Part shown: one piece after another, positions 4,656 through 27,734 of the stretch
Layout: every line of letters starts with the position of its first letter
Numbering within the stretch: position 1 is the stretch's first letter
Source of the DNA: Somniosus microcephalus
Lineage: Eukaryota
NCBI GenBank assembly: GCA_052327205.1
Contig: CM126209.1
Coordinates: 33,790,001 to 33,854,000, forward strand
DNA: 64,000 bases
Direction of reading: 5' to 3'
Translations under genes and position numbers: made by a program
The notes under the pieces: model-generated
Database searches by the model: none
Told to the model about the DNA's origin: nothing
Seen by the model: only the letters and a program-made list of their open reading frames with translations

Positions 4656-5238
4656 TGACATGAATCAGTCATTCATGAAAGAAAGACTTATCACAGAATC
4701 ACAGAAACCCCACAGTGCAGATAGAGGCCATTTCGGCCCATCGAGCCTGCACCGACACATATCCCACCCGATCCCCGTAACCCCTACACCAACACATATC
4801 CCACCCTATCCCTGTAACCCCACGTATTTAATCCCCCTAACACTAAGGGTCAATTTATCATAGCCAATCAACCTAACCCGCACATCTTTGGAGTGTGGGA
4901 GGAAACCGGAGCACCCGGCGAAAACCCACACAAACACGGGGAGAATGTGCAAACTCCACACAGACAGTCGCCCGAGGCCGGATTCAAACCCGGGTCCCTG
5001 ACGCTGTGAAGCAACAGTGCTAACCACTATGCCACCGTGCTGCTTATGAAATAATACTGAGCGGCCTACGGGTGGCGCTGTCCAGGGAGAGTATAAATAC
5101 TTGGGCATGGGCCCAGCTTGCACAGGACATTCTTAACAGAAACTAGTGAAGGACACAACTAGACCTCCATGTTGTAAAACAGTTGATTAAAGCTTTGTTT
5201 AACGCTTAGACCAAGTGCCTGGTAGTTTTCTTACGTCA
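4656..5238 (+). mobile_element. Solo-LTR-like element, copy A, interrupted by an HE1 SINE
   Basis: TGACA...CGTCA termini, 5-bp TSD GCCTC (4651-4655 and 5239-5243), TATAAATA and ATTAAA inside. Homologous to 5659-5885. Confidence 0.8.
4692..5042 (-). mobile_element. HE1 (V-SINE) element
   Basis: Minus strand has the tRNA-like head GGCACGGTGGCATAGTGGTTAGCACTG...GGGTTTGAATCC, the V-domain GGAGTTTGCACATTCTCCCCGTG and a CR1-like tail. Flanked by CTTAT repeats. Confidence 0.88.
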
Positions 5239-5658
5239 GCCTCTTTCTGTGCTGTATAACTCTTTCTTCAATAGTGCGTACCATTCTTAAAAGATCAGTC
5301 TTTATAACACCTGAACTGTGGTACACAACCTTAAATGTGGAAGTCAGGGCCTTTCTCCCGCTGCAGTCCATCTATCACACTGGAGATATACAACACAAAC
5401 ATAAGCATTAACCATCAGATTTTTAAGCTTATGGCTTTTCAAGCCATGTATCAGCTTGCCTGCATTTTACAAGAAAAATCAGCTTTATTCACTGGTGTTG
5501 GAGGTTGTCAGTATCAATTAATCATTTCATTTGGAAGGTGGAACTGAAGTCTGTCGAAACCAAATAAGTTGGTGAGCAAGACTCCAGCCAGACTTCACTT
5601 AATCACATTGTTTGTTGTGAACAACCCTGAGGCAAATAAGCAGCTGAAATGCAGCTTC

Positions 5659-5885
5659 TGACATAAATCGTGCCATTTATGTAGAAAGGACTTATGAAAT
5701 ATACTGGGCGGCCTGCTGGCGGCGCTGTCCAGGGAGAGTATAAATACTCGGGCACAGGCCCAGCTTGCTTGGGACATTTTGTAAACAGGAACTAGTGAAG
5801 GATAACTAGACCTCCATGTTGTGAAACAGTCGATTAAAGCCTTGTTTAATACTCTGACCAAGTGCCTAGTAGTTTTCTTACGTCA
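5659..5885 (+). mobile_element. Solo-LTR-like element, copy B (227 bp)
   Basis: TGACA...CGTCA termini, TSD GCTTC (5654-5658 and 5886-5890), TATA box and ATTAAA. Confidence 0.82.
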
Positions 5886-6257
5886 GCTTCTATATTTTGT
5901 TTTAAAATTTGCTCTCAAGAAGAACTTCTTGGGTCATGCCTGACTGTTGTTTTATGTTAAGGTTTAATTTCTTCAATACTGGTTGCAGTTGTTTTTTTCA
6001 GACTAGCTGGATGTTCTTGGGTGAAATGCATTAACTAGCTTTGTTTGGCAATTTCTGTCACTGTACTTGTGCAATTGCCTAGGCTTGAAAATGAAATCAG
6101 GAGTGGGGTTCGATATATGATGTGTTATGCGTAATGAAAATACAGAGATTCACACTCAGAACTGCAGTTGGCTCCAAAATGCCCAAAAATTACCAAGTCA
6201 AGTGTCAAAAACAAAAATATTCTGGAAGGGCCATGCCCCTATATCTAATTGAGTACT

Positions 6258-14240: not shown

Positions 14241-14694
14241 TTGGAGGGGGAAAAGGAAAAGTTTAACAATCGCAGGTAGTAGTTTACGGAAAAAGAACGA
14301 ATCTATCGGAAATATAGTTCACGTTGAAAGTACTTCCAAACGTTACTTTTCTGTTTTAACTAAAATATTAAACTAATCCTGACATGTATTACAAAGTGAA
14401 GTAAATCCACAAGTAAATAAAAGATTTAACTGAAAAGACGGACAAGCTTTTAAAATTCAAACAAGCAATAGGTCCATTATTAAAAGTGAAGGACCCTGAG
14501 GTTTCAAGTTCTGAATAAGTTATTGATAAATTTAGGTTCTACTCACCAGACTGTTCCAATGTGCATCTCAGTGATGCTTCTCACAGTTATGATGCTCATT
14601 ATAATATCTATAACACCATAAAAAAAAACAAGGGAGCATTGTAGAATCAGAATTTCAATAAGTAATCTGTTAACTAATCAAATGGCTATATCAT

Positions 14695-14874
14695 TGTTGT
14701 GTATGTACCTTTAAGGGAAGAACTGATTCTATACTGCAGTACCGGCAGTGACCACCCCTGTATATAAAGCCATAGCAGGCTTCTGTATTTCAGTCTTGAG
14801 TTCCCCTCTGTTCAGTAAATACCTGTTTTATTGTTCTCCTGCAGTCCGAGTATTATTGATACCCGGACACTACA
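14695..14874 (+). repeat. Element 1 5' LTR
   Basis: TG...CA. Three mismatches in 180 bp against the 3' LTR by eye. TATATAAA inside. Confidence 0.96.
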
Positions 14875-14875
14875 C

Positions 14876-14898
14876 TGGCGACGGGCAGGTTCGAACTC
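14876..14898 (+). promoter_or_regulatory. Primer binding site, tRNA-Ser-like
   Basis: TGGCGACGGGCAGGTTCGAAC begins 1 nt after the LTR. TGGCGACG is complementary to the 3' end of tRNA-Ser(GCT). Confidence 0.75.
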
Positions 14899-15411
14899 AC
14901 CTGCAGTACTGCATCACCTCACGGGGATCTTTTCCCTGAAGAGAAGCTTCTTGGAGGTCGAAGTCAGAACGGCGGGCGTCGACCGCGGGCAACCGCCCAG
15001 GGATCCATCGGAGAGTTGCAGGGGAGGCTGTGGAGAGCTGGGCCTGGCTCCCCAGTCGAGGTGTTCCAGCAAGTCGTGCTGGTAGCAGGTAGTGCGCTGA
15101 CCCTTCCGGACTGCGGCGGGCTCGGGCTCGATCGAGCGGCTCTGCAAAGGGGCCGTGCAGCGTCGTCGGGAGGAAGAGAGAGAGGGTGGAGCGCACAGGG
15201 CGTGGTCGGTGCTCAAGAACCAGGCAGCGTGGAGAGGATAGAACGAGGGGAAGAAAAAGTGATACGCGCCGAAGCCGCGGGCCACCATTACCCTGTAGAA
15301 CGCTAAGAGCAGCGTGGCAGTAAGGAGAAGAAGCAAAAGCGCGGGAGGCGCTATTTTATTCCATTGGGGAAGAAGAAAATGCGCGGGAGGCGCCATTTTA
15401 AATCACTCAAG

Positions 15412-18400
15412 ATGCCGAAGAGTGGTAGTATCACTGCTTTCGACAACGAGGTAGAAGACTGGACCACATATGTGGAAAGAATTGAAGTGTACTGCGAGGC
15501 AAATGAGGTGGCCGATGGAAAGGCGGCGTCGGTATTATTAAATTTGATGGGCGCGAGAACGTACGGCTTATTGCGGAATTTAATTACCCCAGCTAAACCA
15601 ATGGAGAAAAGTTTTGAAGAGATTGTTAATACCTTACAGGAACACCTAAACCCTACACCGTTGCTGATAGCAGAAAGATTCAAGTTGCATAAAAGAAACC
15701 AGCACAAAGATGAGAGCAATGCTGACCATCTTACGGAACTACGCAAGTTATCGAAGCACTGCCAGTTCGGAGCAGGACTGGCAGACACCTTACGGGATAA
15801 GTTTGTCTGCGGGCTCCAGAGTGAAGGAACCCAGAAACGACTACTTTCGGAAAAGGACCTGACGCTAGAACAGGCTTTCAGCATGGCAGTATCCTACGAA
15901 GCAGCAGCACGGGGAGCTGCGGAAATACAACAGAAACCACAAGAATACAGCGCTAACGAAATGGCGTATGGAGCAGAAAAGTGCTATCGCTGCGGCAGAA
16001 CAACCCATGATCAGAAGGACTGCTGGTTTAAGGACAAAGTATGCAGGCAATGTGGGCAAATGGGACACATAGCAAGAGTCTGCAGGTCGGGAAAGAAAAC
16101 CAACACTACAAGAACTACTAAGGAAAAGTACAAGAAAGTAAAGAAATTGACAGACAGTAGTTCGGAAGATCAGGAGAGTGATAAGGACTCCGGGAGCAGG
16201 AGACTAAGTTGTCTAAAGTTACACAACGTGATCGCAAAGGAGGATCACCGAACCATTTGGGTCACCCTCAAGATAGCAGGGTCCCCAGTAAAGATGGAAT
16301 TGGACACAGGATCAACCCTAACTGTCATGAATCGATGAGACTATGAGCGGCTATTCCCACACATACCCTTGAAGGACACGTCCATTGTATTGAAGACATA
16401 CACGGGGCAAAAGGTCTACCCCAGAGGAAAAATAAGGGTGCCAGTTGAATACAACAGCAAGGAAACACAGAAACTGTATCTATATATACTACCAGATGGA
16501 GGACCACCATTATTGGGACGTGAATGGATCCGAAAAATACAATTGGATTGGCATTCCATTCAGGCGCTAACTGTGACTGATAAAAAGGATGATGACGTCA
16601 CACCTGGACGACTGTCAAAGATTCTAACTGACGCGAAAGAGGTGTTCCAACAAGGACTTGGGACTCTAAAAGGAGTAACGGCAACGATAAAAATCGAAGA
16701 TAACGCAAACCCAAAATTTCTTTAAGGCCAGACCAGTACCTTACGCGATCCGCCCAGCCGTTGAAGCAGAGCTGGAGAGTCTGGAGCGTTCGGGTGTGCT
16801 GTCCAAGGTGGACTGGAGCGAGTGGGCCACACCCATCATTCCTGTAATGAAGAAATCATTGAGCAGCACGCCTGGGGAACCGAAGAAGGTTCGCATCTGT
16901 GGGGACTTCAAGGTAACTGTGAACCCAGTCCTGCACACAGTACAATATCCACTTCCACGGATAGAAGATATTTTCGCCTCACTATCTGGAGGGAAACGCT
17001 TTACAAAGATTGATCTGTCCCAAGCGTATCTACAAATGGAGGTGGAAGAAGCATCTAGGAAATACCTCACGATAAACACTCACAAAGGCCTTTACCAGTA
17101 CAATCGACTGGTATTCGGGGTAGCATCAGCCCCGGCTATTTGGCAGAGGGCGATGGAACAAGTCCTGCAAGGGATCTCGGGGACCCAGTGTTATTTGGAC
17201 GACATCCTGGTTACGGGCGAAAATGACAGTGAACACCTTGCCAACCTGGAGCAGGTGCTCACGAGATTACAGGAATATGGGCTACGAGCCAACCGCCCCA
17301 AATGTGAGTTCTTCAGGAGACAAATCTCGTATTGTGGCCACATGATTGATGAGGAAGGGTTGCATAATTCGCCGGACAAGATTGAGGCTGTAGTCAAGGC
17401 TCCAGCACCGGAAAATGTGTCGCAACTGAGGTCGTTCCTCGGGTTAGTGAACTACTACCATAAGTTCTTGCCGAATTTATCTACAATTCTGCACCCACTG
17501 AACGCCCTCCCTGCTGCAAACTGGAGTAACATGGAAATGGAGTGATGAGTGTAAGCGTGCCTTTCAGAATGTAAATGCCTAATCACTTCAAAAGAAGTAT
17601 TGGCCCACTACAATCCAACACTACCGATTCGGTTAGCATGTGATGCGTCTCCCTATGGCATCGGAGCGGTGCTGTCACACAAATTCCTTGACGGTTCAGA
17701 GAGGCCAATAGCCTTTGCGTCGCGCTCGTTAACCTCAGCCGAGCGTAACTATGCCCAGATTGACAGGGAGGCCCTCAGCCTGGTGTGGGGGGTGAAGAAG
17801 TTCAATCACTATCTGCACGGGCAGAAATTCACCCTACTGACTGATCATCAGCCCCTGGTCTCCATTTTTAACCAAAAGAAGGGCGTTCCGGTGATGATGG
17901 CGCAACGGCTGCAAAGATGGTCACTTTTTCTAGGGGCACATCAGTACGACATAGAGTACAAGGGTACGAAACAGCATGGAAACGCTGATGGGCTGTCGCG
18001 CCTACCATTGCCTATGGTAGAGGAAGCACCTGCAGTGGACCCTGTTGAGATATTCCATGCGACCATAGTCGAATGTCTACCTGTTACAGACTCAAGTATA
18101 GAGAAGGAAACCCGAAATGACCCGACACTCTCTCGGGTCTATGATTTGACGGTGAAGGGATGGCCAGCACATGGCGACTCACTGTTGCCAGCATTCTCGC
18201 CAAGGAGAGAACAGCTGTCAGTGTGCCGGGGAACCTTGATGTGTGGATCCCGAGTGGTAAATGCACCAAAGTTGAGAGATAGAGTGCTCAATGAGCTTCA
18301 TGAGGGTCATCTGGGAGGGGTAAAAATGAAGAGCCTAGCCAGGGCGTTTGTGTGGTGGCCGGGAATCGATAAAGAAATCGAGGATATGACCAAGAGATGC

Positions 18401-19371
18401 ACAGGATGCCAGAAGGTCCAAAACGCTCCACCACAGGCCCCGCTACATCCATGGGAGTGGCCCTCATCTCCATGGCAATGGGTACACATTGATTTTGCTG
18501 GTCCATTTATGGACTCAATGTTCCTAATCGCTGTGGACGCCCATTCGAAATGGCCAGAGGTCATCAAAATGTCCTCCACCCCACCACCACGGAGAAAACT
18601 ATTGCAGTCCTACGGACCATCTTCGCCAGGAATGGCTTGCCAGAACAGATTTGCTCCGACAATGGGCCACAGTTTGTGTCAGAGGATTTCCGGAGGTTTC
18701 TGAGGAATAATGGGGTGAAGCATTACACATCTGCCCCATATCATCCAGCCACAAATGGATTGGCTGAGAGGTTTGTTCAGACCTTTAAAAAGGCCATAAA
18801 GGCAATGCACAATGACGACATACCACAACACAAGGTGGATAATTTCTTGTTTGCTTACCGGAATGCGACACATGCAGTCACCAACCAAGCTCCAGCCATA
18901 ATGTTCTTCAACCGAAGGCTAAGATGTCGCCTGGATTTGCTCAAACCAAACATAAGACGAGATGTTGAGGATAAGCAATTCCAGCACATAAATGAGAAGC
19001 CAACCAGGAGCTTCAAGATAGGGCAACCAGTCTTGGCCCGCGACTACCGAACAGAAAAATGGCAGCCAGGAACGATATGCACACAGCAGGGACCACTAAT
19101 GTACACAGTGGACGTTGGCGGGAGCATCATGAGACGCCGTGCTGACCAGATTCTAGAGTCACAGGAACAAGCCAAACCCATACCACGAGCAGGTGCACCT
19201 GGTAATCAACCCGAAGTACAGATTGCGTCTACCTCAGAAGCAATGGTATTGGAAGCTGACAAACCAACCAATGACAATGAGCCAGAATCAACTCCACCGC
19301 AAGAACAGGATACTCGAGAAAGGCGCTATCCAGTCAGGATCAGGAAGCCTCCTCAAAGACTGAACTTATAA
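15412..19371 (+). pseudogene. Element 1 gag-pol polyprotein, disrupted
   Basis: Two CCHC knuckles, protease LDTGS, RT YLDD, RNaseH CDASPYG, integrase HHCC plus HIDFAG/SDNGPQF/GLAERF, ending PPQRLNL*. Stop at 16336-16338 and frameshifts near 16720, 17508, 17575 and 18580. Confidence 0.95.
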
Positions 19372-19467
19372 ATGATTATTTCAGTTGATGTATATAGTAC
19401 AGAGAAAATTGTAATTGTAATTAGTTATTATTTAAGTTGTTAAATGAATGTTATGTACTGTTTATCT

Positions 19468-19480
19468 AAAAGGGGAGGAA
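19468..19480 (+). promoter_or_regulatory. Polypurine tract, element 1
   Basis: AAAAGGGGAGGAA just before the 3' LTR. Confidence 0.9.
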
Positions 19481-19481
19481 T

Positions 19482-19661
19482 TGTTATGTATGTACCTTTA
19501 AGAGAAGTACTGATTCTATACTGCAGTACCGGCAGTGACCACCCCTGTATATAAAGCCATAGCAGGCTTCTGTATTTCAGTCTTGAGTTCCCCTCTGTTC
19601 AGTAAATACCTGTTTTATTGTTCTCCTGCAGTCCGAGTATTATTGATACCCGGACACTACA
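19482..19661 (+). repeat. Element 1 3' LTR
   Basis: Direct repeat of 14695-14874, followed by TSD ATCAT. Confidence 0.96.
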
Positions 19662-21110: not shown

Positions 21111-22175
21111 TGACTTGATTAATTGCACAGATTTCATCTTGATTTCCATTGTCCTGGTTATTTCCAAACTTTTACATAAAGTCCTAAGGGTCCAAAGGTT
21201 CGATCAAGAGTTCAAAGAGAATGTGAAAGGTCTGCAAACTCCTCTTCAGTTCACTCTATCAATCCTATACGATACAAGAACTGGCAAGAGGCACAAATCT
21301 ATCCGGCTAGACAGAGGGTATTTCAGCTGGTGAAGCAAAGCACATAGTAACTTACTGAAGAACAGATCAGATATTGTGCAAAACTAGTTGGGCAAAGCAG
21401 TCCATTAGTGAGTCTTATCTAAAATGAACAAATATGAATGGCTTATCCTCGCTGTCTCCAATTACAGTCTCCCGGTCATTTATTTAAATCCAGAAAGCTT
21501 TACTGTAGCTCAAATAGTACCTCAAACATCCAGCTGTCCACTTCTCAATAACACCATGTGCAGCAAAGGCGGTGTCAATCGGTCAGTCTCCATTAGCTGA
21601 AACCTTCTCCGTGTGGCCTCATATTAGAGAAAAAAATAACAATGCACTGGATAAGGTTGAATAATATTACAATAAATTACCTCAGAAATGCCATTAGTTG
21701 TAAAACCCTAATAGTCCTTTTAAAATTAAAATAATTTACCTGAGAAAGGACCACATAACAGCCATCATTGAGCTGGTTTTATGTTCAATGGAGGTTCGCT
21801 ATGCAACTGGGAGATGTAACTTGGTTTGGTAAGAAAAAGGTTCAAAAAATCAATGTTGCTTAACTGGGACAATATCTTTATTTCTGCCAGAAAAACAGAA
21901 AACGCTGAATATGCAGTATCAAAAATAAAATAAAAGTTTTGGATGTAATCCTTCACCGAAACTGGGATTTCTTTCAGATGCTAATCATGCTATTACACAC
22001 TTCCACGATTTTCTCTCTTTATTTCAGATTTCAACATTCACAGTTTATATTTCTGTACCTCACGGGCTTTTAAGAGTATGGTGGGAATTTTAACTCCCCA
22101 CCTGGGGTGGAAACCAAGTCGGCGGGTTTGGCTGTCATTTATGCAAATTAGGGTCCTATTATATCATGAGGACCC

Positions 22176-22431
22176 TGTAGTGTATGTAACCATTCTACCT
22201 TTAAGAGAACTATTGTATGTAACTGTCCACCTTTAAGAGAACTATTTTAGGTGTTGCACTACTTTATCTTGGCTGCTGTATACTGTAATACCGGGAGTGA
22301 CCACACCGGTATATAAGTGCTGTGTAAGGATTTATTGGGCAGATTCGCCCTGACCTTCGAATAGTAAAGTCCTGTTAAAGTTACTCTTGTAGTCTGTGTA
22401 TTGATTCACCATATAACCCACAGACTTTACA
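22176..22431 (+). repeat. Element 2 5' LTR
   Basis: TG...CA. Three mismatches in 256 bp against the 3' LTR. Internal ~33-bp tandem duplication at its start. Confidence 0.96.
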
Positions 22432-22432
22432 G

Positions 22433-22448
22433 TGGCGACGGGTTCGAT
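22433..22448 (+). promoter_or_regulatory. Primer binding site, tRNA-Ser-like
   Basis: TGGCGACGGGTTCGA. First 10 nt are identical to the element 1 PBS. Confidence 0.75.
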
Positions 22449-22799
22449 CTTACCCTGCGGCAGCGACACACCCGAAGCAGTTAACGAGCGTCGAGAAGAG
22501 GCACCCGCCCTCGTCGTTCGGCTGAGAGAAGACTCGAGTCTGCAGAGCAAGGAAGAAGGAAGGATTCAGACACGAAGCCTTCCATCAGCAACAGGCTGTT
22601 ATTGTCCCTTCTGCCACGGCGGTGAGTGAGCCGATCAGCCAAGAGAAGCAAGTCGGCCACGTTGACTGTGAGTAGGGGGAAAATAAAAAGAAACGGAGGA
22701 TAAGGGCGGTGAACTCGACCACGGTCGGGGGAAAGGAGCCGGACAGAAGTCGGGCCCAGAGGCGCTGAGACTGGGGCAGCGTAGGGCACGGAAGCCACG

Positions 22800-23473: not shown

Positions 23474-26074
23474 ATGCCTAAGCATGGTAACATCAACAAC
23501 TTCGATTCCGAGGTGGAAGATTGGGCCACGTACGTAGAACGCATCGAGATATATTGTGAGGCCAGTAAAATAGCAGATGATAAAGCTCTCACCTTATTAA
23601 ACGCAATGGGGGCGAAGACATACGGGCTATTGAAGCATCTTCTATCACCAGCTAAACCGGCGGATCAGACTTTCGCTGATATTGTTGCTGTCCTGAAGGA
23701 TCATTTGAACCCCACACCGCTGATGTTGGCGGAACGATTCAAATTTTATGCGAGAACGCAACGGAAAGAGGAAAGCAACGCGGAATACTTGGTCGAACTG
23801 CGTAGACTAGCGAAATACTGCCAGTTTGGGGAAAAGCTGACAGAGGCATTGAGAGACAAGTTCGTGTGTGGGTTGTCGAAGGAAGGAACACAAAAGCGAC
23901 TGCTCGAAGAGAACGATCTTACACTTGACAAGGCTGTCCTTATTGCAGCATCACACGAAGCAGCCGCGAGAGGCACTGCGGAAATGCAGCTGAAGGCAGC
24001 GGTACTCAGCGTGGATCAAATGACTTCGGGTACAACAAAATGTTATCGTTGTGGGAAGACAACACACGACCAGAACCAATGCTGGTTTAAAAACCAGGAA
24101 TGTAGAAAATGTGGCAAGCTTGGTCACATAGCTAAAGTATGCTGGTCAGGAAAGAAGACCAACAACAGAAAAAAGTCACCGCAGGAAAAGTACAGCAAGG
24201 TACACAAGGTGGCTGAGAAGAGTTCAGGTGAACAGAATTCGGATTCAGACCCGAACGGCCAGGAACTGGGTAGTCTGAGAATTCACAATGTGAGTAAGGA
24301 AGCTGACCTACAAACTATCTGGGTCACACTAAAAGTAGCCGGAGTCCAAGTGAAAATGGAATTGGACACAGGATCAGCCCTATCAGTCATAAATCGAAGG
24401 GATTACAACCGGCTATTCTCACATATACCCTTGAGAGATACCAAGATCGTATTGCAGACATACACGGGGCATAAAGTATACCCCATGGGAAAGATACAAG
24501 TCAAGGTGAGAGACAGGGGCAAAGAACACCAAGGAATGGACTTATATGTACTACCTGAGGGAGGTCTACCACTTCTGGGACGGGAGTGGATCAGGGAAAT
24601 AAACATGGAATGGCACTACCTAAAAGCAATAACGAGTGAGAACTCGGTGAAGACAATCAGCTCAGACTCTGAAACGGATGACGACAAGACCAGCCCAGGT
24701 GCGAAAGATAAGTCTAAAATGGACTTGCTGACTAAGATTGGAAAAACGAAGGAGTGCATAAATACTGATGCTTCAAAGGAGAACAAAGTTTCAGAACAGA
24801 ATTCCACTGAACAACAACATAGTTTGGCAGAGAATTCTGAGTCTGTCCAGTTTACAGACATGCACAAGTCTGAGGAACACCGGGCTCGAACTCAACTCCA
24901 TTTCAAATTACAACAGCAATTAGAACAATTGAGTTGCCGTCTCGAGCAAGAGATAAAAGCAATGAAAACGTTCTTTGACACAGAGTGGGAGAATCTGGAA
25001 AGACAACAGAAACAGCTGAGGGAGAAAAGGGAGCAGGAGCACACAAACCGTCTGCGCAAGGAGGCCAAACGAATCAAAGCTGATTCGGTTTCTGAAGGTG
25101 CGTGCTCTAATCTGGTGGAGCAAGAGGTTCAGCAACTGAAGGTGCTTGTTAGCAGATTGCAGGCAGAAAAGGCTGAGTTGGTCGCCATGAATTCCGAGCT
25201 CCTACTGAAGTTGGGTGCAGCATCACCGGACGATTCATTTGTGGAAATTCGAATGGTGGAGGCTGCGGATGATGGCGAAGTAGAAACAGCAAAGGAGCCC
25301 CAGGGGGAGGTTATAAACAGCCCTGCAGCTACTGGGAAACGGATGAGGTCAGAAGAGTCAATGGTCAGCCAACTCCTTCATATGCTGAGGGACAAGACTC
25401 TGAAATGGGAACAATTTGGACATGAGTCTAAATCTTCAAAGGAGAGGGATTTGGAGCTCCCAAAAGTTATTGGAATAGCTGAGGTTGCAACACAGACTGA
25501 GAAGATGGCAGCAGAGCAAACCTTGGATGCCAAAAGTACGCTGATTCACGTCAATGTTGAACAACAGAATGCTGAAACAGCTGCTCCAGTAGAGGGATTG
25601 AATAATACAATCAATCAATCTCCCAATGAAGTTGAAGTATTGAAATCACGAATGAGGTCATTAGTAAAAGACTTGCAGGAAGCCCAGAAAAAGCTGGATG
25701 AAACTGAACGCATGAAGAAGTCTCTTCAGGAAAGATGTCTGGATTTGGAACAAAAGCTGGCTAACGTCCAGCTGGGTATGGAGGAAATAGAAGACCCTCT
25801 CGCTGGCTTAGCTCAGGACGACACCGAATATTACCATGACCTGTTGGACGACACCGAATATTACGATGACCTGCTCTGCCCAGCTTGTGATGAAAACTCC
25901 CAAAGTGCAGAAACCATGAAGAATCACCTAAAGTCTAAGGAACATCGGGAGATGGTGGCGCTACTACGGAAAAAGGAGGACGAGAAGGAGGAACGGTGCA
26001 TGCAGCTGGCAGCTGACAGTGGAGCCCAGAGAGTCTCCAAGAAGCAGAAAAGGAAAAGACGAAGCAGAAGATGA
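23474..26074 (+). CDS. Chimeric Gag-protease fused to STK10/SLK-like, optineurin-like and DNAJC21-like segments
   Basis: Uninterrupted frame. ATG 23474 aligns with element 1 MPK start. [33 protein letters not shown], then EEHR...[14 protein letters not shown]...[25 protein letters not shown]...DSFVEIRM...VSQLL...LQEA...MKKSLQE, and [10 protein letters not shown]...[17 protein letters not shown]. Confidence 0.9.
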
Positions 26075-26284
26075 TGACCATCTGAACCATTATCACCTCT
26101 ACCAGGTCACGCATGTGGTCTCTCCGTACGGAGCCAAACCAGTTTGGAAGTAGAAAAACTTCCCAAGGTACTCAAGCTTTTAAAAGTCAACAATGCTGGT
26201 TCAGAAGTGACGGAAGTTCAAGCTGTTAAGTCCAGTGAAGGACTATTGGATGAGTCACTCCAGCAACGTGAACCGACTACACCG

Positions 26285-26393
26285 AGACTGAATCTGTGAA
26301 CTGTTTTCCGCAGAGACTGAATCTGTGAACTGTTTCCCGCAGAGACTGAATCTGTGAACTGTTTCCGCAGAGACTACATCTGTGAACTGTTTT
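26285..26393 (+). repeat. Four copies of a 28-29-bp repeat containing the pol terminal codons
   Basis: AGACTGAATCTGTGAACTGTTTTCCGCAG. Across units it reads CCG CAG AGA CTG AAT CTG TGA (PQRLNL*). Confidence 0.9.
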
Positions 26394-26447: not shown

Positions 26448-26459
26448 AAAAAGGGAGGA
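26448..26459 (+). promoter_or_regulatory. Polypurine tract, element 2
   Basis: AAAAAGGGAGGA directly before the 3' LTR. Confidence 0.9.
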
Positions 26460-26460
26460 T

Positions 26461-26716
26461 TGTAGTGTATGTAACCGTTCTACCTTTAAGAGAACTATTG
26501 TATGTAACCGTCCACCTTTAAGAGAACTATTTTAGGTGTTGCACTACTTTATCTTGGCTGCTGTATACTGTAATACCGGGAGTGACCACACCGGTATATA
26601 AGTGCTGTGTAAGGATTTATTGGGCAGATTCGCCCTGACCTTCGAATAGTAAAGTCCTGTTAAAGTTACTCTTGTAGTCTGTGTATTAATTCACCATATA
26701 ACCCACAGACTTTACA
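26461..26716 (+). repeat. Element 2 3' LTR
   Basis: Direct repeat of 22176-22431, followed by GACCC. Confidence 0.96.
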
Positions 26717-27734
26717 GACCCCGATGCCCGGACTCGCTCCCTTCGCACGCAAACTGCCCCATCCCTGCAGTTACCTTAGGACCAGAGACCACCCAACTAT
26801 CCGCCACTCCCACCAAGGTCCCAGCCATGCAAGTCAGAAAGTCGGCCAGCAGCATGTTAACAAGGCTCAACTTTTAAAATTAGCCGCTCCTGGATGGTCT
26901 AGCCGTTCGCTAGCCCGCCTTCCCATCCAGGAGTTAAAATTCCCACCTGCATGTCTTTACAAAATATTCTGATGTTATGATCAGGCATAGCATTGCACAA
27001 TCTAAGAGCCAATCATTTTATGCAATCACTCACATTCTTATATGGCACAATCTATAAAAGTGTTTTTCAGCCTTTTCAAACTGAGAATTCACAATGTAAT
27101 GTTGGATAGGTTTTTATCCTCGGTAGGGACGTTCTGTGAAGCATTAGATGGAAGTTCAGTGCAGATTTAGTATGTGATTCTACATGGGAACTGATGCAGC
27201 CTGTCACATATGGAATGATGGCCTCTGATGATACTTGAACCCACAACCAATGAGGTGTGAGACAAATACTTCGCCACAGTGGCACCAGATTGCCTATTAA
27301 AGCAAGATTTTTTTTGTTTTAGGAAATAAGCTGTGGCATTATATTACTCTAAACTGTGGTTTTCAATAAAGGACAACATATTTATATCTAATATACTGCC
27401 ATAAATTCTGTTTATAATTAACATTCACATAGCAAAGACAATATGGTTTTGATTTATCCGGAGCAGATTATTTTACTCTGGCACTCTAATGAATACTTAT
27501 TGTTGGTCTGCTTCTGGTGGCCGTATGTGCCACATAATCAAACTCCCTGCAATGATTTTAACTGTCAGGATTACTAGCTTGCATTCATTTATCACGGGTT
27601 GTCTTTTTCAGGTTAGAAAATCATTTGTAGCCTCTTCATAGTTTCCGCATGTTGCAATTAAATCTTCCGAATTGCTAATAGATCTATTAGTGCACAAAGA
27701 GTCATCAGGTCTCTGTGCCCAGTGAAAAGCAAGA

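Follow-up and report, generated by a model that had tools for sequence, protein, structure and literature searches.

A DNAJC21-derived zinc finger as probable passenger cargo of a Ty3/gypsy element probably founded on a captured STK10 circle

The element and its copies

The window analyzed here is a stretch of 64,000 nucleotides from Somniosus microcephalus (GenBank assembly GCA_052327205.1, contig CM126209.1, positions 33,790,001 to 33,854,000). It contains a 4541-bp non-autonomous Ty3/gypsy LTR element (Table 1) whose open reading frame (ORF; 23474-26074, 866 residues) encodes, in order, gag, two CCHC knuckles, an aspartic protease, a PKK coiled coil, and, at the C-terminal end, a C2H2 zinc finger. 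A Pfam search of this ORF gave no hit to reverse transcriptase (RT), RNase H, or integrase. Identity as an autonomous Ty3/gypsy element was rejected because these are missing, although the LTRs, primer-binding site (PBS), polypurine tract (PPT), target-site duplication (TSD), gag, and protease are present. The PBS is labeled as such on established knowledge. The initial annotation of this locus, made from the sequence alone, recognized DNAJC21 as the source of the finger but missed the retrotransposon around it.

Table 1. Features of the element, in window positions. STK10 exon labels ex8 to ex12 were assigned in the present analysis.
Feature	Positions	Strand	Basis or remark
Target-site duplication GACCC, left	22171..22175	.	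5 bp
5' LTR, TG...CA, 256 bp	22176..22431	+	3 differences from 3' LTR
Primer-binding-site position, start TGGCGAC, extent approximate	22432..22450	+	same start in other LTR pairs
gag (CCHC knuckles 24041, 24101) and aspartic protease (DTG 24365)	23474..24631	+	89% identical to pol-bearing L139
STK10 piece, middle of large exon ex9	24634..24875	+	88.6% to host G000:C8
STK10 ex11-ex12, spliced (PKK coiled coil)	24872..25083	+	~89.6% to host
Optineurin (OPTN) piece, six exons, five spliced junctions, in place of STK10 back-splice	25075..25788	+	81-95% to host G000:C17
18-nt remnant of STK10 ex8, upstream of ex9 in host	25778..25795	+	100% to host
DNAJC21 piece with first C2H2 finger	25796..26065	+	spliced junction at 25915, second just before SKKQK codons
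30-bp tandem duplication, subfamily marker	25817..25876	+	25817-25846 / 25847-25876, 27/30 bases alike, in frame
Finger C-x2-C-x12-H-x5-H, Ser in place of Phe	25877..25945	+	profile score, copy comparison, ligand positions
Basic tail and two stops	26036..26077	+	codons of DNAJC21, then STK10 out of frame
Rest of STK10 ex8 and ex9 start, closing circular permutation, non-coding in window subfamily	26057..26254	+	95% and 90.6% to host
Integrase C-terminal tail remnant	26255..26299	+	comparison with relatives
Polypurine tract	26448..26459	+	sequence
3' LTR	26461..26716	+	repeat comparison
Target-site duplication GACCC, right	26717..26721	.	5 bp

The family is young. LTR pairs in 16 of 19 fetched copies are 96.9-99.6% identical; two of the remaining three have no pair, and the third has a pair that is not its LTRs. 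At least 40 genome copies stand at 99% (the best 40 of 2931 candidates scored). Exact genomic matches number 414 for the duplication junction (control, 0) and 1386 for a finger motif, the host exon being one. Of 30 close copies, 19 keep an ORF of 860 residues or more, and 11 are without the full ORF. The window copy has two private 3-nt deletions, and the stop of its subfamily lies ~377 nt ahead of the PPT, versus ~75 nt in the relative L165. Around the old integrase stop (26268-26393) sit four 28- to 29-bp units, and element copies differ by whole units. In four loci (L116, L126, L127, and L128), pol sequence of other gypsy elements is found just past the 3' LTR, these copies having been inserted directly there.

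The finger and its basic tail

The four ligands reported in the initial annotation are in place: cysteines at 25877 and 25886 and histidines at 25925 and 25943 (ORF residues 802, 805, 818, and 824). Shuffling the ORF protein gave the same pattern in 3 of 20,000 trials. The in-frame duplication, the basic tail, and the loss of the conserved Phe of KSF, replaced by Ser, were likewise read correctly. The feature itself is present as described, but the start given for it, 25780, does not fall in frame, since the first base of the Met codon is 25778. The 12-residue tail, which closes with two TGA codons (26072-26077), is composite, SKKQKRKRR being the host SKKQKRKKR with one change and SRR plus the stop being out-of-frame STK10, reached via a shared 8-nt stretch.

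How well preserved is the finger? The Pfam family zf-C2H2_jaz (PF12171), to which the first finger of DNAJC21 belongs, scores 27.0 bits for the 98-residue piece and 22.3 for the whole ORF, against a curated cut-off of 22.6; two older copies score 41.9. The ligand spacing and the following helix of that DNAJC21 finger are retained, and the window subfamily has lost several basic residues besides the Phe. The aromatic core position after the second Cys holds Ser in 30 of 30 close copies and Phe in 19 of 20 older loci (the remaining one was not parsed). All four ligands are intact in the 30 close copies. Loss of the ligands in sister copies had been named as grounds for abandoning the finger; they are conserved, in a test that is weak because the 30 copies are 99% identical and four ligand codons would stay unchanged at the observed rate with a chance of about one in three. 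Many sister lineages have no finger at all.

DNAJC21 as the source

Several observations support host DNAJC21 as the gene from which the finger derives. Residues 770-866 returned two hits among 82 candidates, both DNAJC21 proteins, the better one from a shark (64% over 42 residues). In the host genome the finger is split by an intron, whose position was first guessed from the human gene, and an acceptor was confirmed at the guessed position. The exon with the second half of the finger (G000:C1:4792918-4792793) and the next exon (G000:C1:4790521-4790482) were both found, and both DNAJC21 joins are intronless in the element; the exon-junction comparison suggested in the initial annotation thus bore out its assignment. 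Older element copies are 96.5-99% identical to the second-half exon. The role of DNAJC21 in 60S maturation, which that annotation had named, is stated in PMC10119586.

A search of 50 kb, a stretch containing a gap, did not find the first-half exon, and neither the donor side of the intron in the finger nor the DNAJC21 switch at the 5' end could be placed. Nor was any finger exon present in the 180 kb that follow exon 4 of host DNAJC21; the second-half exon sits 2.1 Mb off. The host gene is divided between G000:C1:2.65-2.68 Mb and 4.79 Mb, each location beside an N run, and this split is probably a scaffolding fault. A genome search with the whole protein P0122 returned element copies alone. 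The window ORF was rejected as a DNAJC21 gene, since it is without the J domain and the zuotin homology domain, both present in P0122. A PF21884 hit at G000:C17:58.36 Mb (L031 and L032) was also rejected as DNAJC21, having no P0122 match in 80 kb; its zuotin-homology-domain exons are probably those of DNAJC2.

The probable STK10 circle

The STK10 pieces of the window copy are permuted: mid ex9, ex11, and ex12 are followed by ex8 and the start of ex9. Here the back-splice junction is gone, replaced by OPTN, and permuted order alone is left. Sister copies retain the junction: there the ex12 end meets the ex8 start, precisely on the GT donor and AG acceptor, and a 21-mer spanning this join has 872 exact genomic matches (control, 0). 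The whole series ex9-ex10-ex11-ex12-ex8-ex9 is present in 4 of 25 junction-sampled loci at 98-100% identity to the host. It runs from ex9 position 146 to position 159, which is one turn of the circle plus 14 nt, the circle being 1245 nt long and hence a multiple of 3. In the 100 kb of host STK10 locus examined, each circle exon is single-copy, and four copies aligned by BLAST to the same 100 kb matched the circle exons only. L119 has an uninterrupted frame that runs from gag, where the retrieved stretch begins, across the circle and on into the tail of integrase.

Where did the element sequence break off? As far as the 5' switch, L119 is 99.3% identical to a pol-bearing relative (L139, the same locus as L165) that is not intact itself. 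At this switch 11 of 12 bases agree between the relative and the ex9 site, and at the 3' switch it has 6 exact bases in common with the same site. Both element-STK10 switches map to one place in ex9. It is very likely, judging from these junctions, that the founder captured one full turn of a putative STK10 circular RNA, and the simplest reading would be two template switches, onto such an RNA and off it again after a single complete turn.

Optineurin and other cargo

Residues 440-866 have their best hits in optineurin and STK10 of sharks and rays. The OPTN piece retains DSFVEI at 25232-25249, presumably the LC3-binding motif of OPTN. Deletions of 291 and 231 nt that keep the frame are seen within the OPTN part in RNA reads; the RNA joints 25052-25344 and 25116-25348 excise DSFVEI in frame. 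The host OPTN exon near G000:C17 85,885,360 (L099) has one base more than the element copies, shifting its frame relative to the orthologue, and this extra base is probably an assembly error.

Microhomology is found at both element-STK10 switches, at both OPTN ends, and at the DNAJC21 3' end. A 417-nt deletion is common to 24 of 28 loci. DNAJC21 was inserted into ex8 (L036 and L048). OPTN occupies the place of the back-splice without the finger in three loci (L142, L143, and L146) and with it in other lineages; the two cargoes were therefore probably gained apart and later combined. The window subfamily is among the most derived, with its duplication, the Phe loss, and a 7-nt gain restoring the DNAJC21 frame in the tail; its DNAJC21-to-STK10 junction is out of frame.

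Other lineages carry further host pieces. In L124, L137, and L140, an in-frame Ig-repeat cargo lies within STK10 ex8 (best solved match titin, E 1e-50), the L140 copy containing stops. A myosin-tail coiled-coil cargo lies inside STK10 ex12 in L048 (L048:712-1354) with two stops; a protein-cluster search matched it to myosin-tail clusters, and we take it to be cingulin-like. At ~599-1075 of L116 and L126, an in-frame cargo has 92% identity to P0124 and shows a relationship to a PHD-finger protein. It is presumably KMT2A around the taspase sites; a protein-cluster search with the L116 insert gave no lead. Across lineages there are thus at least six donors: STK10, OPTN, DNAJC21, and the titin-like, myosin-tail, and KMT2A-like pieces.

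Selection on the frame and its parts

Is any of this cargo under selection? All dN/dS comparisons reported here are pairwise, between natural sequences. Against L165 and L161, gag-protease gives a dN/dS of 0.19-0.28. The payload against the host gives 0.55 (P 0.01) with no transition weighting or 0.81 (P 0.22) with it, transitions being strongly favored (kappa ~7); the STK10 piece past the stop, which is non-coding, gives 0.64-0.89. The finger segment differs from the older copy L159 by 18.5 replacement and 3.5 silent changes, for a dN/dS of 1.5-2.1. Against seven cargo-bearing copies, pN/pS is 0.33-0.43 for gag-protease and 0.75-1.07 for the payload, the two differing in 7 of 7 pairwise tests (P 0.0004-0.04) that are not independent. 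These ratios indicate that gag-protease is constrained, the payload is not, and the finger segment is least so. Silent divergence in gag-protease varies from patch to patch and is roughly double the payload value, so part of the constraint there may have been acquired in autonomous elements and come in via recombination.

The frame is another matter. Among indels of at least 6 nt in 28 DNA-sampled loci, 13 of 15 keep the frame (P 3e-5), a tally whose events are not fully independent, some sharing ancestry, and which still includes one exception, in L140, that is a locus-end artifact; smaller indels keep it in 4 of 7. Through two different frame changes, C termini carrying 9-10 Lys/Arg among their final 14 residues evolved twice, the second time separately in older lineages; L165 has 4. 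Selection thus seems, from this indel and substitution record, to act on the open frame and not on the finger. The RNA-binding function that the initial annotation had proposed is not supported, given the excess of replacement changes, the drop in Pfam score from 41.9 to 27.0 bits, and the many lineages without a finger.

Transcription

The family is transcribed, on evidence that concerns the family and not the window copy. At 88% likeness, 34006 of 16.7 million records of RNA run X7 and 30259 of 14.4 million of run X8 aligned to the element; reads at least 99% alike numbered only 994 and 863, respectively. Both runs carry a species label other than that of the best-matching DNA data and may stem from a related species. 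Their 101-nt reads give depth across all element bins, gag and payload alike, and almost none in the flanks; cargo and element may be transcribed as one RNA. First mates are mostly on the minus strand in X7, which in the usual stranded library means sense RNA, and are mixed in X8. No chimeric protein was seen among the matches listed, 120 of 313 proteins of 476-1516 residues.

How the element may have arisen, and what the cargo may do

We consider it likely, on the strength of the alignments and junctions above, that the finger travels as passenger cargo in a non-autonomous Ty3/gypsy element whose founder captured an STK10 circle. As read from the copies, RT, RNase H, and most of integrase in the founder were replaced by one turn of STK10 ex8-ex12 in back-spliced order. 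During reverse transcription, the enzyme would have jumped from element RNA to a co-packaged STK10 circular RNA, gone once round it, and returned to element RNA at the same site. Pieces of spliced mRNAs were inserted later at short microhomologies in the cassette, DNAJC21 into ex8 and OPTN in place of the back-splice. Pol-bearing relatives with similar LTR, PBS, and PPT would mobilize the element, and mobilization in trans is very probable. What would then maintain the frame? The element may still need gag-protease of its own and translation that continues almost as far as the 3' LTR, either for cis-preferential packaging, of the kind reported for mouse IAP 1-delta-1 (PMC6466679), or for escape from the decay of early-stop RNA; taken jointly, this need is somewhat favored. 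Cargo would be filtered for frame retention while its amino acids drift. The finger would have decayed, a working one being improbable, and the basic C terminus, in which the initial annotation saw a possible nuclear or nucleolar signal, may be the sole useful part of the cargo, though its usefulness is itself doubtful.

Some observations sit awkwardly with passenger cargo on a captured circle. The window copy itself has the permuted order only, without the back-splice junction; the DNAJC21-to-STK10 join of its subfamily is out of frame and the stop lies far ahead of the PPT, and more than a third of the close copies (11 of 30) lack the full ORF. In addition, the payload ratio of 0.55 computed without transition correction looks like mild constraint. 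Could the cargo then be doing work? The protease might free a product made up of coiled coil, finger, and polybasic tail. This product would serve the element by binding RNA or by entering the nucleus or nucleolus, or would act as a decoy for partners of STK10, OPTN, or DNAJC21. Sense orientation of all the cargo, mostly in frame, would suit such a product, as would the two origins of polybasic tails, the intact ligands, and transcription of the family, but two tail events are too few as proof of convergence, cargoes are interchangeable among lineages, deletions remove OPTN sequence from the RNA reads, and the payload and finger ratios speak against it. We regard this as unlikely. The same grade applies to a prediction that the element is an expressed exon-shuffling platform with a protease-released, host-derived C-terminal product as its working part, and we doubt to a like degree that, on such a platform, the polybasic-tailed product would aid the element in cis or disturb the partners of host proteins. 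Another possibility is that host sequence acts as a shield: small-RNA silencing of the element would also strike STK10, OPTN, and DNAJC21, so cargo lineages would be silenced less, the frame being a side condition. The repeated captures from different genes and a copy number above one thousand accord with this, and such a conflict is reported in maize (10.1101/777037), but the same source describes no rise in copy number of elements with captured fragments, and the window subfamily and the host exons have already diverged by 5-19%. A shield seems quite improbable.

Two further alternatives concern origin. Tandem exon duplication, trans-splicing, or an extra template switch could have supplied the permuted STK10 from linear RNA, for a linear transcript joining ex12 to ex8 yields an identical junction and other routes to non-colinear junctions are noted in PMC4897178. 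The single-copy state of the circle exons in the 100 kb of host sequence, the exactness of the junction at both splice sites, and a capture that starts and stops at one site after one turn plus 14 nt make this very unlikely. As for a domesticated host gene, the 866-codon open frame is what might suggest it; the LTRs differ at 3 of 256 bases with the TSD intact, at least 40 copies exist at 99%, and the window copy has its private deletions. Moreover, X4 contigs contain the family with no depth on the right flank, which suggests that related species lack the insertion. We give domestication almost no credence.

Relation to known systems

Probable passenger cargo on a captured circle has partial counterparts elsewhere. 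In mouse, circRFWD2 gave rise to circRNA-derived pseudogenes in 33 copies with LTR-rich flanks, by a mechanism called mysterious (Dong et al. 2016, PMC4897178). The shark element resembles these in its fixed non-colinear back-splice junction, the feature that marks such pseudogenes and that the founder type of sister copies carries, in its many copies, and in the LTR sequence nearby. Unlike them, it has 872 exact junction matches, a circle within a whole element, switch points mapped to a pol-bearing relative, an in-frame fusion to gag-protease, and further captures. With LTR-mediated retrocopies, including maize Bs1 (Tan et al. 2016, PMC5131818), it shares intronless host pieces between discontinuous element parts, microhomology at the switches, several donor genes, and remobilization as a non-autonomous element. 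The donor here, however, is very probably circular, a word that the main text of that paper does not use, and Bs1 has one to five copies, as against more than a thousand, with at least six donors across lineages, here.

TR-GAG elements of plants (PMC4350172) are similarly non-autonomous, with LTR, PBS, PPT, and one gag ORF and no RT or integrase. They were filtered as shorter than 4 kb and without aspartic protease, and the first family is copia-like; identity with them was rejected, the shark element being a 4541-bp gypsy element with protease and host cargo. Mouse IAP 1-delta-1 (PMC6466679) is also non-autonomous and has one fused ORF, for which help in cis is reported, but there a deletion joins gag to pol and nothing from the host is included. 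A literature search that took in few subscription journals and no repeat libraries gave no description of this family or of a circle within a whole LTR element; closer cases could sit in the supplements of PMC4897178 and PMC5131818.

In 2016 the way in which circular RNAs enter genomes was still an open question (PMC4897178). A single genome now lets the entire capture be followed, with its donor exons, pol-bearing relative, both switches, full turn of the circle, and later captures, and these sequences directly support a template switch onto a circle within an LTR particle. A vertebrate element has spread spliced pieces of at least six host genes, in frame, to more than a thousand sites. The finger itself is a minor and probably decaying part of it. 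The system allows one to ask (i) whether selection targets frame, tail, or cargo and (ii) whether silencing of the element spills onto the donor genes.

Other repeats in the window

A second, older Ty3/gypsy element occupies 14693-19661, its gag, protease, RT, RNase H, and integrase split among several frames. The terminal repeats of this older element agree at 98% across 182 nt, and 300 nt of its protease region are 73% alike to the chimeric element. A tandem array of 38-bp period at 1044-2447 yields several spurious long ORFs. Direct repeats at 5054-5244 and 5701-5891, 647 bp apart and 87-90% alike, one with a TATA-like stretch, are possibly the ends of a small element.
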